From: Octopus vulgaris
Taxonomy: Eukaryota
Direction of reading: 5' to 3'
Assembly: GCA_951406725.2 (NCBI GenBank)
Contig: OX597824.1
Location: forward strand, 68,076,001 to 68,140,000
DNA length: 64,000 bases
Made by a program: the position numbers and the translations under genes. Shown one piece after another: positions 3,968 through 63,856 of the stretch (within the stretch, counting starts at the first letter, position 1; each line of letters begins with the position of its first letter). A model generated the notes under the pieces. It had not been told where the DNA came from. It was given only the letters and a program-made list of their open reading frames with translations, and did not search any database.

Positions 3968-26920
<22,953 letters not shown>

Positions 26921-27362: not shown

Positions 27363-27427
<65 letters not shown>

Positions 27428-27428
<1 letters not shown>

Positions 27429-27891
27429 AAAAAATAAGACAACAAAGCCAAAGCTGTGTGGAATTTTCAGGACATTTATAAAGAGAAAGTTAGTCTTACA
27501 GCTGTTTCAGGGATATTAGGGATATCCCTTCATCAGAGACGATGTGAGATGGTTAAATAGAGGAAAAATTAGAGTTCAATATAGGGAGTTATTTTGGAAA
27601 AGAAAGTAAATAAGGAGTATACAGGGAAATAGGAGAATGAATACACAAATAAAAATGTATAAAGATGTTATAATTGCAGTTCCATTATCTGAGGAAAGTG
27701 GTAGAAATGCTTCTTAGTGGTATGTAAATTCCAATGGAAGTTCATATTTTATCATCACAAATGAAAAGTGTGGAGACGTAGATTCCATGTGCTGTACATT
27801 CAAATGGATCTTGTGGTGTGAATGAAAATATAAGAATGTAGTGGTAGAGAGGGGAGAAGAGATGTGTATGTTAAAATGAAGTGAGAGGTCA
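27428..27891 (-). mobile_element. Penelope-like terminal (pLTR-like) repeat with hammerhead; inverted partner at 29951-30450
   Basis: Colinear reverse-complement similarity with 29951-30450; contains the hammerhead motif. Confidence 0.7.
27493..27540 (-). ncRNA. Minimal type I hammerhead ribozyme
   Basis: Minus strand: gucu CUGAUGA agggauau-cccua-auaucccu GAAAC agcu GUA^ agac; perfect stems I and II, palindromic loop III. Confidence 0.88.
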
Positions 27892-27930: not shown

Positions 27931-28012
<82 letters not shown>

Positions 28013-28195
28013 AAAGGGCTTAGTAAAATAAATTACTTCGCCGCATACTGAACTCATTAGAAATAGCAGCCCAAAAACTTTTTTAAAGCTATTTCTAATA
28101 CTTAAAGAAAATCTCTCTCATATATAGCGTTTGCCTAATTCAACTCACAAAAGTTTGGGGGTAAGGACATTAAAAAATCAAATGCTAAGGTTATT

Positions 28196-28247
28196 TGAGT
28201 ACGTACGTTTCAAGATTAGTCAAAACAACACTTCTATCTTCAGCTCA
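28196..28247 (-). ncRNA. Minimal type I hammerhead ribozyme, unit 1
   Basis: Minus strand: ugag CUGAAGA uagaagu...acuaaucuu GAAAC guac GUA^ cuca; stem I perfect, stem II irregular. Confidence 0.75.
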
Positions 28248-28741
28248 GAAATTCCTTGGTTTGGATTTGGAAACACTGAAAGTAAGAACATACCCTTTCG
28301 AAGATTCGCTCGTTACTAACAGTGCCAACAAACCCAAAATAAGCAAGTGAAGAATTTCTGTCCTCCCCTTTCCACCAGCGTGGGTTAAAATCATCAAACG
28401 CTATGCTTATTTCGGTAAAATCCGAAGCATTAATTAGAGGGAGATTAATTATAATTTCAACAATTGAGGGTAAAATTAATTAATTATTAATCAATTTCAC
28501 CAAGTGTTCAGTATGCAAAGGGACCATTTAAGGCGAATTCAAATTATTACATTATATAAAAGGGCTTAGTAAAATAAATTACTTCGCCGCATACTGAACT
28601 CATTAGAAATAGCAGCCAAAAAACTTTTTTAAAGCTATTTCTAATACTTAAAGAAAATCTCTCTCATATATAGCGTTTGCCTAATTCAACTCACAAAAGT
28701 TTGGGGGTAAGGACATTAAAAAATCAAATGCTAGGGTTATT

Positions 28742-28793
28742 TGAGTACGTACGTTTCAAGATTAGTCAAAACAACACTTCTATCTTCAGCTCA
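28742..28793 (-). ncRNA. Minimal type I hammerhead ribozyme, unit 2
   Basis: Identical to unit 1. Confidence 0.75.
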
Positions 28794-29286
28794 GAAATTC
28801 CTTGGTTTGGATTTGGAAACACTGAAAGTAAGAACATACCCTTTCGAAGATTCGCTCGTTACTAACAGTGCCAACAAACCCAAAATAAGCAAGTGAAGAA
28901 TTTCTGTCCTCCCCTTTCCACCAGCGTGGGTTAAAATCATCAAACGCTATGCTTATTTCGGTAAAATCCGAAGCATTAATTAGAGGGAGATTAATTATAA
29001 TTTCAACAATTGAGGGTAAAATTAATTAATTATTAATCAATTTCACCAAGTGTTCAGTATGCAAAGGGACCATTTAAGGCGAATTCAAATTATTACATTA
29101 TATAAAAGGGCTTAGTAAAATAAATTACTTCGCCGCATACTGAACTCATTAGAAATAGCAGCCAAAAAACTTTTTTAAAGCTATTTCTAATACTTAAAGA
29201 AAATCTCTCTCATATATAGCGTTTGCCTAATTCAACTCACAAAAGTTTGGGGGTAAGGACATTAAAAAATCAAATGCTAGGTTATT

Positions 29287-29338
29287 TGAGTACGTACGTT
29301 TCAAGATTAGTCAAAACAACACTTCTATCTTCAGCTCA
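29287..29338 (-). ncRNA. Minimal type I hammerhead ribozyme, unit 3
   Basis: Identical to unit 1. Confidence 0.75.
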
Positions 29339-29722
29339 GAAATTCCTTGGTTTGGATTTGGAAACACTGAAAGTAAGAACATACCCTTTCGAAGATTCGC
29401 TCGTTACTAACAGTGCCAACAAACCCAAAATAAGCAAGTGAAGAATTTCTGTCCTCCCCTTTCCACCAGCGTGGGTTAAAATCATCAAACGCTATGCTTA
29501 TTTCGGTAAAATCCGAAGCATTAATTAGAGGGAGATTAATTATAATTTCAACAATTGAGGGTAAAATTAATTAATTATTAATCAATTTCACCAAGTGTTC
29601 AGTATGCAAAGGGACCATTTAAGGCGAATTCAAATTATTACATTATATAAAAGGTCCCTTTGCATACTGAACACTTGGTGAAATTGATTAATAATTAATT
29701 AATTTTACCCTCAATTGTTGAA

Positions 29723-29753
<31 letters not shown>

Positions 29754-29809: not shown

Positions 29810-30450
29810 AAACAATTAAAATAAGATTAGATAGTTAATAAATTTTATGGAAAGTCAAATAGGGTTGTTGGGGGTTACCTAAGTGATGTTCGGGATATGT
29901 GCTGTGTGGTTATTTAGCTTTCATTTAGATTTGTGGTAAAATTTTCCTTTTGACCCCTCGCTTCATTTTAACATACACATCTCTTCTCCCCTCTCTATAT
30001 ACTTAATACTACCACTACGTTCTCAAATTTCCGTTCACACCACAAGACACCTCTGAATGAACAGCACATGGAATCTACATCTCCACACTTTCCATTTGTG
30101 ATGACAAAACATGAACTCCTATTGGAATTTACATACCACGGACAGGAAGCATTTCTACCACTTCTACATACCACATTCTTTGGATAATGAAACTGCAACT
30201 ATAAAATGTTTATACATTATTATTCTCTTATTCTCTTATTCTCTTATTCCCCTAAATACACATTAGCTTCTTTTCCAAAATAACTCCTCATATTGAACTC
30301 TAATATTTTCCTCTATTTAACCATCTCACATCATCTCTGATGAAGGGATATTACAAATATCCCAGAAACAGCTGTAAGACTAACTTTCTCTTCATACATG
30401 TCCTGAAAATTCCACACAGCCTTGGCTTTTTTGTTTCATTGTTTTAAAAA
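29810..30450 (+). mobile_element. Penelope-like terminal repeat with hammerhead (inverted partner of 27428-27891)
   Basis: Colinear similarity from 29951; hammerhead motif. Confidence 0.7.
30333..30380 (+). ncRNA. Minimal type I hammerhead ribozyme
   Basis: aucu CUGAUGA agggauauu-aca-aauauccca GAAAC agcu GUA^ agac. Confidence 0.8.
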
Positions 30451-30929: not shown

Positions 30930-31500
30930 TATTTGTATTGTTATGCTTATTAATTCAAAGTATAGGTTCATTTTCATCTATAGACAATTTATCATTTATC
31001 TTGCTGGCTGTTTGAGAGTTAGCATTATTTTGAAATTTAATTTTATGTGTATACGCTGCCTTAGCTAATGCTGAGTTATAATAGTCTTTAATATTAAAAA
31101 TTTCTTTGTTAGATGAGAGGTAATTCTGTGTTGAATATTTTTAACTAAACATTTAGTTATTGTTTGGGGATGATTACTATCCTAATTAATATAAGTTAAC
31201 TTTGAATTAGATTTTTGATATAGTGCATGGTTGCCTGTGAGTAGGTTAAGGTTTACATCTAATAAATGTACGGAATTATGCTCATTTTCTACAGAAATTT
31301 TCAAGCTAAATGTATTAAAGAATTAGTGAAATTTCTTCCTGTATTTTCTAATTTTATGTTACTGGTAATTTTAATTATAAATAATGCATCGTCTCTATAT
31401 AACCCTCCGGCTATTTCTGGAAATTCATTAATGAACTTGTACAGAATATAAATTCCTGCAATTTCAGAGTAAGCCCTTCTATTTATAAATGTTCTGAAAT
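30930..31500 (-). mobile_element. Penelope-like retroelement RT remnant
   Basis: EIAGIYIL...GLYRDDAL catalytic motif, LLDVNLNL and YINRDSNHP thumb motif on the minus strand, with frameshifts. Confidence 0.78.
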
Positions 31501-33097
31501 CCTTCACAGCCTTGGATTTTTATCTCATTCTGTAAATATTTTTATATATTCATATATATATGAATACTGTTCACATTCATACATCTATACAGCAGTATAA
31601 ATACGTGTATAGAGATGCTTGTAATTATCATTCAAAATTTTGAGGATGTAATTTTCTCGTAAGAGATTGTTAGTAACAATCCAAATGCCAACTGGCTTTA
31701 TCAAATATATTGAAAGAAAGTACCTCAATATATATGTATAAACAGTCTAATGAATTATAGAAATAATAAAAGAAAATGATGAAGAAAAATTATAATAGAT
31801 ACTTGGTTCATTTTATTTGTACCACAATGAAAAACTAATGCAAAATAAAAGTGAATCCGATAAGGATAAGGATAAAAGAAACCGGATCAACAAAACAACC
31901 AAGATATATCGGAAAAAAATTTTACACATGTTTCAATCCGACAGTATGTTCGAATCATCAACATTCAAACGATTATAGATGTAAGAAACCATATATTGCC
32001 GGGTATCTCCAGGGAAAAGTAAGTATATTTTCCGGTCTTGAATTACGAAATAACTAATTTGTGGACTGTGTTTTGAAATTTTCAAATGTAAATAACAACC
32101 TACTAGTACGCGGAGTTAATGTGATTAGATATCGATCGTTGAAATTTGGCTAATATTGATCGTTGAAATGTTGCTAAAACATCAAATGCATTAGAAAAAT
32201 ATATTTATAAAAGTTTATGGGAGGAATATGGGATAAAGAAAAATGTAACGCCTTAAAGATGAAGGAACTTCATACGAAATTAAATGGAGAAGAATAGAAC
32301 TGCCGGACCCTGTATAAACTGCTGCGGATGATGCAAACTTTACATTGTAGAGTAGGCAAGGATCCTTAACTAGGCTCGCTGGACCCGGATTCTCTCTTAA
32401 ACTCAAGACACGACATCTATACCCTTGCCCCAATTTCAAACGCTACCTGCTGCAGGCGTGAGATTTCTCGTTCGTCGCTTAGGGATGTAAAATTTATTTG
32501 CAGGCCGGAACCAACCTAGGGGTGGAAATTCCCGTTCACACTTTAGGTCCATAAGATTTGCTGCCTGGACCGGACTAGGGGTGATAACTCGTCCCGTTTA
32601 AGGCCTAGGCTGTGTATATTATTCTTTTGTTTACAAATTAACTGACCGTAACGGTTCTCTACTTCCAAGCTGAAGAGAGATTAAATGCCCATGGTCATTG
32701 AAGCTCCAGCCGTGCTAGTGTGTGTGTTTGGGTGTATAACGTTTCCATTACAAACGGTACTTTTTAATTCGGAATTTAACTAACACAAGTGCATTGCCGT
32801 TGCATATCATCTAACAATTTTCACACTATTTGTATATAGCAATACACTAGGGATTCAGTTGATTCTAGGTTCGAACCAGGCGCGTGGTGTTCATAAGCCA
32901 CACAGTATTAGCGAAATATTGGAAATGTTGATATCCGCCACTCTTGATTCAATCGGGACGTATTGTCTCACTTTTTCTATAACTTCAGGTCTTTTAACAC
33001 CCAGCATTATTAGGCAGTCTCTCCCCAAACAATAAACTGCAGCAAGTTTGGCGAATAAACAGAACACATGCACTGTGGATGAACGATCGATAATGTT

Positions 33098-35493: not shown

Positions 35494-36680
35494 TCAGGTC
35501 ATTAAGAATTAAATGTCCGATTTTCTTATAGACCATGTTTGACAGCCGCTAACTCTAAAGTTTTATCATGACAATTTTTTGTTTTACAACATTGAAGAGT
35601 TACATCATCACTTTTCGAAATGTATCTGATTATATTGTGACTTTTCTCTTCTAAATCAATTTTTGTTAACCCATGGATAGATAAAAAATTCGTGTTGTTT
35701 ATGAATACAAGTTTTGTCGTGGGACCAATGCATCCCAGACAGCTCGAAACATCAATTAGGTGTTTGGTAAAGATAACGCGAATGAGCGCTCTGTACGTTG
35801 ATGCATTGAGCAGTTACGGTCTGCTGACTTTACTCTTGAAAATCAGCTCCGTGGTTGACCTGAGACCAAGATGTAAAACTGATCTGCCGGAAACTGTAGT
35901 GGAAGCAGATAGATCTCAAACTACGCGTGAGTTAGCAGCAATGTTTGATGTTTCAATTCCAACTGTATTGGACCATCTGAAACAAATCAGCAGAGTAAAG
36001 AAGCTGGACAAGTGGGCACAACACGAACTGAACAAACATCAAATGATATGTCATCTTGAAACTTGCTGTTCTTTGCTGTTACGGCATAAAAGTGAGCCAT
36101 TTTTGCATCGTACTCTTTCGTGTGATGAAAACTGAATTCACTTCAACAATAGCAAGCGTTCTGCATGGTGGTTAGATAGAAGCGAAATGCCAAAACACAG
36201 TCCAAAAAACAATATTCACCAAAAAAAGCTAATGGAGTCTGTTTGATGGTCCAGTGCAGGTATCATCTATTACAGCTTCATGAGACCTGGTAACCCAATT
36301 ACAGCTGATGTATACGTCAACCAGTTGGATGAAATGATGAGTGAACTTGAAATTAAACAACCGAGATTGGTCAATAGAGACAGGCCAATTCTCTTGTATG
36401 ACAATGCTCGAACACATGTTGCACAAAGAACGCTACTCAAGTTACAGAAACTGAACTTGGAAGTGCTCTGTCATCCACCATATTCACCAATCCTTGCACC
36501 AACTGACCATCATATTTTCCAGGTATTAGACAACTTTTTGCAAGGAAAAAACTTCAAATCTGAAGATGCAAAAACAGCCTTTCGTGATTTCATCACCTCT
36601 TGCTCTCCAGAATTCTTCGCTGCCGGCATAAATATGCAACAGATAAAATGGCAAAATTTACATTCATACTTTGATTAACT
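35494..36680 (+). mobile_element. Mariner transposon, defective
   Basis: KKLDKWAQHEL, CDEN, ILLYDNARTH, HPPYSPILAPTDHH motifs with frameshifts and stops. Confidence 0.88.
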
Positions 36681-38901: not shown

Positions 38902-39093
38902 CAATAATAATAATAATAACATCGAAGAATACCTTAGGAATGAGAACCCAGGTTCGAAATTTCCCCAAGACACCTGAAGAAGGCTGGAGGGTATATCAGC
39001 CGAAACGTTGTGTTAACAACAAACAAGATGAGGACAAATATCCGTCGAATGTAAATAATGTACATAATTACTCATCTCTTAAATATAGAACTG
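38708..39093 (+). mobile_element. tRNA-headed, hammerhead-containing SINE-like element with an inverted copy of its tail at the 5' side
   Basis: A box TGGCGTAGTGG (38763-38773), B box GAGTTTGATTCC (38806-38817), (AAT)n, hammerhead, tail; aactggagtc duplicated at 38698 and 39089; nested in a family 2 SINE. Confidence 0.8.
38970..39013 (+). ncRNA. Minimal type I hammerhead ribozyme
   Basis: acac CUGAAGA a ggcug-gaggguauau-cagcc GAAAC GUU^ gugu; perfect stems I and II, palindromic AACGUU in place of stem III. Confidence 0.78.

Positions 39094-42216: not shown

Positions 42217-63856
<21,640 letters not shown>

Follow-up and report, generated by a model that had tools for sequence, protein, structure and literature searches.

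A hammerhead-bearing tandem array in the Octopus vulgaris genome as a probable non-autonomous Penelope-like insertion with two fixed ends

The locus studied here raises the question of how three nearly identical non-coding units, each with a candidate hammerhead ribozyme, came to stand in tandem beside an inverted fragment of themselves in a (TA)n tract of the Octopus vulgaris genome, and what form of RNA was copied to produce them. We analyzed a window of 64,000 nucleotides (assembly GCA_951406725.2, contig OX597824.1, positions 68,076,001 to 68,140,000, forward strand), and all coordinates below are those of this window. The array is probably a young insertion of an abundant non-coding family with predicted hammerheads, that is, a non-autonomous Penelope-like element (PLE; non-LTR retrozyme), likely copied in trans by a Penelope-type RT/GIY-YIG protein.

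The locus has the standard two-armed form, with an arm A of 1,650 bp and an arm B of 70 bp (Table 1). The initial annotation, made from the letters alone, had described three near-identical units of 546, 546 and 545 bp without a credible protein, a 70-bp inverted piece at one end and (TA)n on both sides, all of which was borne out. The units differ pairwise at 2, 2 and 1 positions, and the 546-bp periodicity spans 28005-29654. The inverted piece (29648-29724) is 99% complementary to 29545-29621 over 77 nt; 70 nt of it (29655-29724) lie outside the forward arm, and the two arms meet in a 6/7-nt microhomology at 29648-29654. No ATG ORF of more than 55 aa lies wholly within the array, the longest being 45-55 aa, and the RT plus GIY-YIG ORF of an autonomous PLE is absent. 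The unit G+C content of 33% is below the 45% limit used for retrozymes. Unit positions 64-66 (28070-28072), on the margin of a poly-A run within a hairpin, are recurrently variable and differ between units in many loci, including this one.

Table 1. Features of the two-armed array and its flanks, in window positions
Feature	Position	Strand	Description
Arm A (long arm)	28005..29654	-	three full units and an 11-nt stub; ends on the outside at fixed start site A (unit position 1); the minus strand has the RNA sense
Unit 1	28007..28552	-	546 bp, 33% G+C, non-coding
Unit 2	28553..29098	-	546 bp
Unit 3	29099..29643	-	545 bp
Arm B (short inverted arm)	29655..29724	+	inverted copy of unit positions ~448-517; ends on the outside at fixed start site B
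Left (TA)n target remnant	27979..28006	.	(TA)n tract itself 27979-28012
Right (TA)n target remnant	29723..29753	.	(TA)n
Structured 3' module	28440..28660, again at 28997-29197	-	three hairpins around sites A and B, spans the unit junction; common to four sister families
Type I hammerhead 1	28196..28247	-	predicted cut between 28200 and 28199 (GUA)
Type I hammerhead 2	28742..28793	-	predicted cut between 28746 and 28745
Type I hammerhead 3	29287..29338	-	predicted cut between 29291 and 29290

Genome-wide copy number, proposed earlier as a check on the array, was obtained from exact 18-mers across the cleavage site. In the 2.8-Gb genome (227 contigs) these matched 1,857 times (255 GUA and 1,602 GUU), and a reversed-pattern control 18-mer gave 0 matches. 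A search with the whole unit returned 1,390 candidates, of which 40 were scored and gave 202 matches. Near-identical copies of the unit are present at other loci. The window locus belongs to a young GUA branch, and older branches of the family have units of ~558-563 bp that are 82-91% identical. The head-to-tail joint is present in contigs of 4/4 further public runs, which bear four organism labels (one may be the source sample) and cover 29/29 bins. At the level of the family this excludes an assembly artefact, the doubt raised beside the first reading, though the number of units in the window array comes from the assembly only. Contigs of four runs only guessed to be RNA also cover 29/29 bins and show the joint; as evidence of expression they were dropped, since a tandem transcript, a circle and DNA would all give it. 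Contig ends at 28199 in these four runs were considered as a trace of cleavage and are explained by an assembly bubble at the GUA/GUU variant (28200). A GUU excess in the run contigs, considered as a sign of GUA cutting, mirrors the genome, where 86% of copies have GUU.

The outer ends of the insertions are the most informative feature of the family. We inspected 93 loci, made up of 13 best hits, 40 from pattern lists (mostly GUU copies on one contig, C1) and 40 from best-hit and GUA lists. Two inverted arms with the RNA 3' ends outward were found in 69 of the 93, and the other 24 were one-armed or incomplete. Site A (unit position 1) was paired with site B (440-448) in 64/69 two-armed loci, and the other five have shifted ends (A/17, 22/B, 404/12, 454/A and A/456). 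Exact A+A or B+B pairs occurred in 0/69, where independent choice of sites would give about half same-site pairs. The A and B ends adjoin (TA)n in 153/154 cases. The array ends are two fixed sites, not free permutation points; this weakens the earlier reading of the array ends as a sign of a circular template, as internal initiation by Penelope RT gives two fixed ends on a linear template too (PMC11167929).

Inside the insertions, the unit is joined head to tail on itself in all 93 loci, and no arm among them continues into an ORF. In the dispersed loci an arm has 0-12 full units, though the maximum, 12 identical units in locus L151, is flanked by runs of N and possibly unreliable; in young loci, at least two full units occupy 38/186 arm slots. 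Inner ends fall throughout the unit, with 4/126 near the cut site (3.9 expected), and 108/126 arms pass the cleavage site. Junction indels at the cut site were seen in 0/288 segments, and one segment lacks the bases 5' of the triplet. This clean read-through points to a template that had not been cleaved or had been religated. Jumping of the enzyme from one cleaved monomer to the next was rejected on the lack of cut-site scars in the 288 segments. Family-wide, units differ by 0.14% within an arm and by 0.30% between arms, seven compound or rearranged loci (L084, L100, L102, L114, L120, L172 and L177) having been left out of the arm-distance, substitution and core-column counts and inspected separately. 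The low within-arm difference and the near-identical copies elsewhere support the view, also taken in the initial annotation, that the array is a recent insertion, as judged from sequence divergence.

The tail-plus-inversion form with A+B ends is a Penelope signature, and twin priming by a Penelope-type enzyme is therefore likely. In LINE-1 twin priming, two cDNAs are made from both target strands on one RNA, and a microhomology joint leaves an inversion. The array family resembles it in its apparent two-strand priming and its microhomology joint, but the second start of LINE-1 is variable and internal, whereas both starts of the array family are fixed and almost always at different sites.

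Each unit carries on the minus strand the CUGANGA / GAAA / NUH core of a type I hammerhead. The CUGAAGA cores begin at 28243, 28789 and 29334, and each motif has a UGAG/CUCA stem I followed by GAAAC-GUAC-GUA. Helix I is 4 bp long, U/G/A precedes stem II, and stem II has 3+3 bp around an internal loop and opens with a U-U mismatch and then an A-U pair. Helix III consists of two pairs round an 8-nt palindrome, and its dimer duplex is worth -11.8 kcal/mol. The motif had earlier been called a minimal dimer-type hammerhead; the dimer type agrees with the palindrome, and the strictly minimal form does not agree with stem II. The bare CUGANGA..GAAA regex has 18 matches in the window, so the motif needed outside support. 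At E<=1, Rfam gave no hammerhead and only 14 sub-threshold miRNA/snoRNA-type matches, and the ViennaRNA MFE structure of the monomer was not folded as a hammerhead, the forced fold costing 6.9 kcal/mol locally and 5.9 in the circular monomer. Comparative support was therefore required.

Such support came from within the family and from two related ones. Among 171 family copies, changes fall at N7, the nucleotide ahead of stem II, loop II and the nucleotide at which cleavage is predicted. Over 68 loci, 0/13 core columns are variable against 111/511 columns overall, a difference of about p 0.04 on its own. In 17 aligned sequences of three families (A, the array family, and its sisters B and D), the core columns are invariant, 98.5% of cells are paired, and 7/12 pairs change on both sides; these sequences were chosen out of 63 listed variants and, as the families are related, amount to ~three independent solutions. 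The stems contain 39 double changes, a number equalled by 0/500 shuffles, and slid-alignment controls were 19-44% paired. The compensatory changes lie in stems I and II, and the helix III pairs are invariant and contribute no covariation. These comparisons support the assignment of the motif as a real dimer-type hammerhead, still a prediction, and the minus-strand hammerhead noted in each unit by the initial annotation is upheld. The cut-site triplet is GUA at the window locus, as annotated, and GUU in most family copies. G or C was found at the cut site in 0/1,857 copies; selection against G was considered as a cause and judged weak, as only a few G copies are expected anyway.

A profile of the 3' region revealed four sister families, B to E. 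In family B, a tandem unit of 562 bp is identical to the array family at 367/584 columns (shuffled mean 49%), and the copies are young with a GUC triplet. In families B and D the corresponding position also holds a hammerhead, whose stems differ in sequence and whose triplet is GUC, GUU or GUA, and both have the G-C closing pair of stem II (in B after A-A); family D units are about 600 nt with a long stem II. The core is kept across families that are about 63-70% identical. Units of B, D and E close on themselves at about 560-600 nt, family C was seen as short truncated ends only in the 14 loci fetched, and no ORF was reached in any of the four families. Families B, C and D (loci L121-L145 and L186-L243) have the 3' module and two-ended insertions in common with the array family. 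The module with sites A and B is strongly folded (z -7.4), and its long helix shows paired changes between families. It is predicted to be the RT-binding and initiation element, and the array family and families B to D form a superfamily probably served by one RT. Family E has 1,520 candidates genome-wide, and a truncated copy with the 3' module lies in the window at 53354-53650 (+). In longer family E copies the first core half is mostly UUGAUGA or UCGAUGA before an intact GAAAC..GUC, and their ribozyme may be variant or decayed.

We looked for an autonomous partner among the PLEs of this genome. A young, intact Neptune-type PLE has two ORFs (479-aa ORF1 and 781-aa RT-GIY-YIG) and many full-length copies (L061-L070, e.g. 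L069:1081-4781). It has a 40-nt tail, and in (TA)n 14 of its ends share one site while 2 lie 40 nt beyond it; no hammerhead was found in it by regex. A young, intact Hydra-type PLE encodes 727 aa and has a 1-kb 3' UTR (L294-L313, e.g. L301:1821-4001); its clade was named from the RWK, DKT and CxCx5C motifs described in PMC8557442, and it gave no Pfam match. Its hammerhead has a very short stem II, and its insertions end in (TA)n at two fixed sites separated by about 70 nt; 5/6 of its two-armed loci have one arm that stops at the first site and one that continues past it. At the end of one Hydra element (L303:7600-8300), a ~483-bp tandem repeat in (TA)n has a 20-23-nt piece of the module in common. 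The 3' module of the unit had no counterpart in 50 GIY-YIG and 50 Hydra-type loci, a sample in which the Penelope/Poseidon, Nematis and Naiad families were not deliberately included. Tblastn of the Neptune-type ORFs against the unit gave no match, and four short unit motifs gave 0 matches in the octopus Hydra and Naiad consensus text of the PMC8557442 supplement, in which line breaks or cut runs could hide one. Since no partner with the 3' module was found, mobilization in trans is argued from the architecture of the insertions. The earlier claim of Penelope mobilization stands for the insertion footprint (the A+B pairs and the (TA)n ends) and not for a link to a mobilizing partner, of which the 100 loci gave none.

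From its sequence features, the array family may be classed as a non-LTR retrozyme that works like a non-autonomous PLE. The operational definition of a non-LTR retrozyme asks for non-coding repeats in tandem, of which two or more successive units contain a complete type I hammerhead (bioRxiv 10.64898/2026.07.22.740005), and 3/3 units of the array contain one. As in the metazoan non-LTR retrozymes of coral, mussel and axolotl (PMC7229834) and of the vertebrate survey (Li, Clavereau and Pollet 2026), the tandem units are non-coding with one type I hammerhead each; they likewise have a G+C content below 45%, run from dimers to long multimers and coexist with autonomous PLEs, which the two studies put forward as the source of mobility (PMC7229834; bioRxiv 10.64898/2026.07.22.740005). 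The unit of 545-563 nt is longer than the 170-400 nt of tested retrozyme circles (PMC7229834) and falls within the 51-972 bp of the survey (bioRxiv 10.64898/2026.07.22.740005). The retrozyme class, its proposed PLE origin (PMC7229834; bioRxiv 10.64898/2026.07.22.740005) and the circle-template model are already published. The accessible text of these two papers does not describe two-armed insertions with fixed ends and does not report cephalopods, and a search of published titles and abstracts, with most subscription papers, Repbase and Dfam outside its scope, returned no description of the array family or of the A+B rule.

The likeness to EN+ PLEs lies in the form of the insertion. EN+ PLEs form partial tandems with an inverted copy, a tail at one end only and a (TA)n bias (PMC8557442), and with the purified anole PLE protein, a predicted dimer, both strands are cut and then extended, synthesis starting from two internal sites that bound the tail (PMC11167929). 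The array family has the same tandem and inverted copies, one-end tail, (TA)n bias and, apparently, two internal RT starts, but it has no ORF, and its tail is about 100 nt against the 30-40 bp described for such elements. Non-autonomous Chlamys elements (MRC1) also form head-to-tail insertions of multiple copies and as a rule share 3' ends with an autonomous family (PMC8557442), a link not found for the array family in the loci sampled. Its hammerhead resembles PLE-type hammerheads (PMC4209133) in the short helix I, the extra nucleotide before stem II and the palindromic helix III/loop 3 suited to dimers, and GUU triplets occur in mollusc and nematode PLE-type hammerheads (PMC4209133, supplement). 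It departs from them in stem II, where U-U and then A-U, split by an internal loop, replace the G10.1-C11.1 pair and the 7-8 bp helix II (PMC4209133).

A mechanism for the insertion can be proposed on this basis. The arrays would be transcribed on the hammerhead strand, and the weak hammerheads, paired through their self-complementary stem III, would be active chiefly in dimeric form. Cutting would release monomers and short multimers, and some of these would be circularized by a host ligase. A borrowed protein, itself probably dimeric, would bind the structured 3' module and nick both strands of a (TA)n tract. Of the two cDNAs, one would be primed at site A and one some 100 nt downstream at site B, on an RNA with intact cleavage sites. 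Each cDNA would continue through successive units until drop-off, and the two inner ends would then be joined into a tail-out two-armed insertion. At the window locus, arm A would have been copied for three units and arm B for 70 nt.

The form of the template was examined through unit-by-unit variants. In 41/49 loci, no other sampled locus was closer to the arms than they were to each other, and in 31 of these the two arms were strictly closest, which points to one template for both. In 59 young loci, 21 locus-private variants were present in all covered units, against 73 private in some units only. Most insertions are clonal; several loci carry ordered or periodic unit variants. Among 19 loci with four or more long segments, 5 had a variant that was shared by at least two of the units and missing from others. 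Locus L148 alternates with period 2 over 7 units, read through one single-base deletion, and L171 repeats a 4-unit pattern twice. Ordered differences among units were found in L146, L155, L090 and L163; the arms of L090 and L146 are shifted against each other by one unit, and those of L120 derive from two different templates. Unit-specific variants recurred in the matching unit of the other arm in 3/26 cases, two of the three being one L163 site. The ordered and periodic variants indicate that some templates were multimers.

These data bear on a possible, though rather doubtful, reading in which the same Penelope-type twin priming used uncleaved linear multimer transcripts only, without a circle; the hammerhead would trim the RNA or ride along, and long arrays would grow later by DNA-level duplication. 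For the anole PLE, uncleaved RNA was the dominant substrate in vitro and hammerhead mutants had no effect on insertion (PMC11167929), and only 1/9 Xenopus retrozyme dimers was cleaved in vitro (bioRxiv 10.64898/2026.07.22.740005). The weak predicted monomer fold of the octopus hammerhead and the ordered unit variants of L146, L155, L090 and L163 point the same way. Yet linear copying alone can only shorten arrays, and 38/186 arm slots in young loci hold at least two full units. Long arms reappear at the tips of the tree, which suggests that the copying of linear transcripts is insufficient by itself. The 21 variants fixed across all units of their locus, the low recurrence of unit-specific variants in the other arm (3/26, with the single L163 site counted twice) and the core kept between diverged families also argue against it.

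For the template, we lean towards a circle, either a monomer or a small multimer, in view of the 21 locus-wide private variants and of the patterns in L148 and L171. The periodic patterns would fit multimeric circles or later DNA-level block duplication. In its most specific form, which we put forward tentatively, a dimeric Penelope-type RT would always use two different start sites on one circular RNA, one per cut DNA strand, and roll round hammerhead-made monomer, dimer or tetramer circles. If this were true, the 64-to-0 pairing and the periodicity of L148 and L171 would preserve, in an animal genome, the trace of rolling-circle reverse transcription, a step that so far has only been proposed. 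Whether retrozyme circles serve as the template of transposition is not settled in the literature, and how tandem and inverted one-tail PLE insertions form is stated as an open question in PMC8557442. The value of the array family is that of a test system, which is young, abundant and ORF-free and offers a sharp A+B rule with a defined structured RNA module. Its unit-by-unit variants discriminate circular from linear templates, and with the A+B rule and the periodic variants in hand, the way in which PLEs and retrozymes insert becomes open to direct tests.

Substitutions showed an asymmetry that was weighed as a possible trace of RNA editing carried into the DNA. Among inherited, tree-polarized changes in RNA sense, A>G outnumbered T>C by 56 vs 24 (p 8e-6), with counts of 5 vs 11 for within-locus singletons and 8 vs 9 for locus-private fixed changes. 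No ADAR-type neighbor preference was found at the A>G sites (p 0.38 and 1.0), which lie in stems, where A-U to G-U is tolerated.

It is very improbable that the array lacks a self-standing unit and is a stack of pseudo-LTRs, in which the 3' ends of some autonomous Penelope-like element, truncated on their 5' side, would follow one another. PLE insertions are often partial tandems of 3' ends (PMC8557442), and the short truncated ends of family C would suit such an origin, but the unit closes head to tail on itself in 93/93 loci with no arm into an ORF, sister families B, D and E are self-closing as well, and the unit has no protein similarity to the Neptune-type ORFs. That a hammerhead-like motif arose by chance in a satellite, a MITE or an artefact of assembly, to which the missing Rfam match, the common bare core and the non-ribozyme MFE fold might point, has a negligible probability; chance and artefact were ruled out by the anatomy of dispersed loci with the same two ends and varying unit numbers, by the contigs of the further runs and by the compensatory changes in stems I and II, and the outer ends are not inverted repeats of each other as those of a MITE would be.

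The surroundings of the array contain older and unrelated elements. Two copies of an older PLE-type 3' end, unrelated to the array, face outward on either side of it at 27426-27891 (-) and 29951-30447 (+); they are identical at 408/501 columns, and each has a palindromic stem III next to its hammerhead core (27536 and 30337). An old two-armed insertion may thus have been the place into which the young array inserted, between its arms. A decayed RT fragment with a YRDD motif, Hydra- or Penelope-like, lies 1.6 kb right of the array at 31304-31519 (-). Another hammerhead-bearing repeat has copies at 38974 and 40343 (+), inside a direct duplication about 1,370 bp apart. Exon-like pieces of a sugar/MFS transporter were seen at 10928-11524 (+), 16541-16972 (+) and 59545-60018 (-), and no further host exons were found among the 73/123 listed plus-strand frames that were scanned. 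Mariner fragments are present at 12532-13011 and 36247-36675, and Pif1 helicase pieces at 44897-46096 probably belong to a Helitron.
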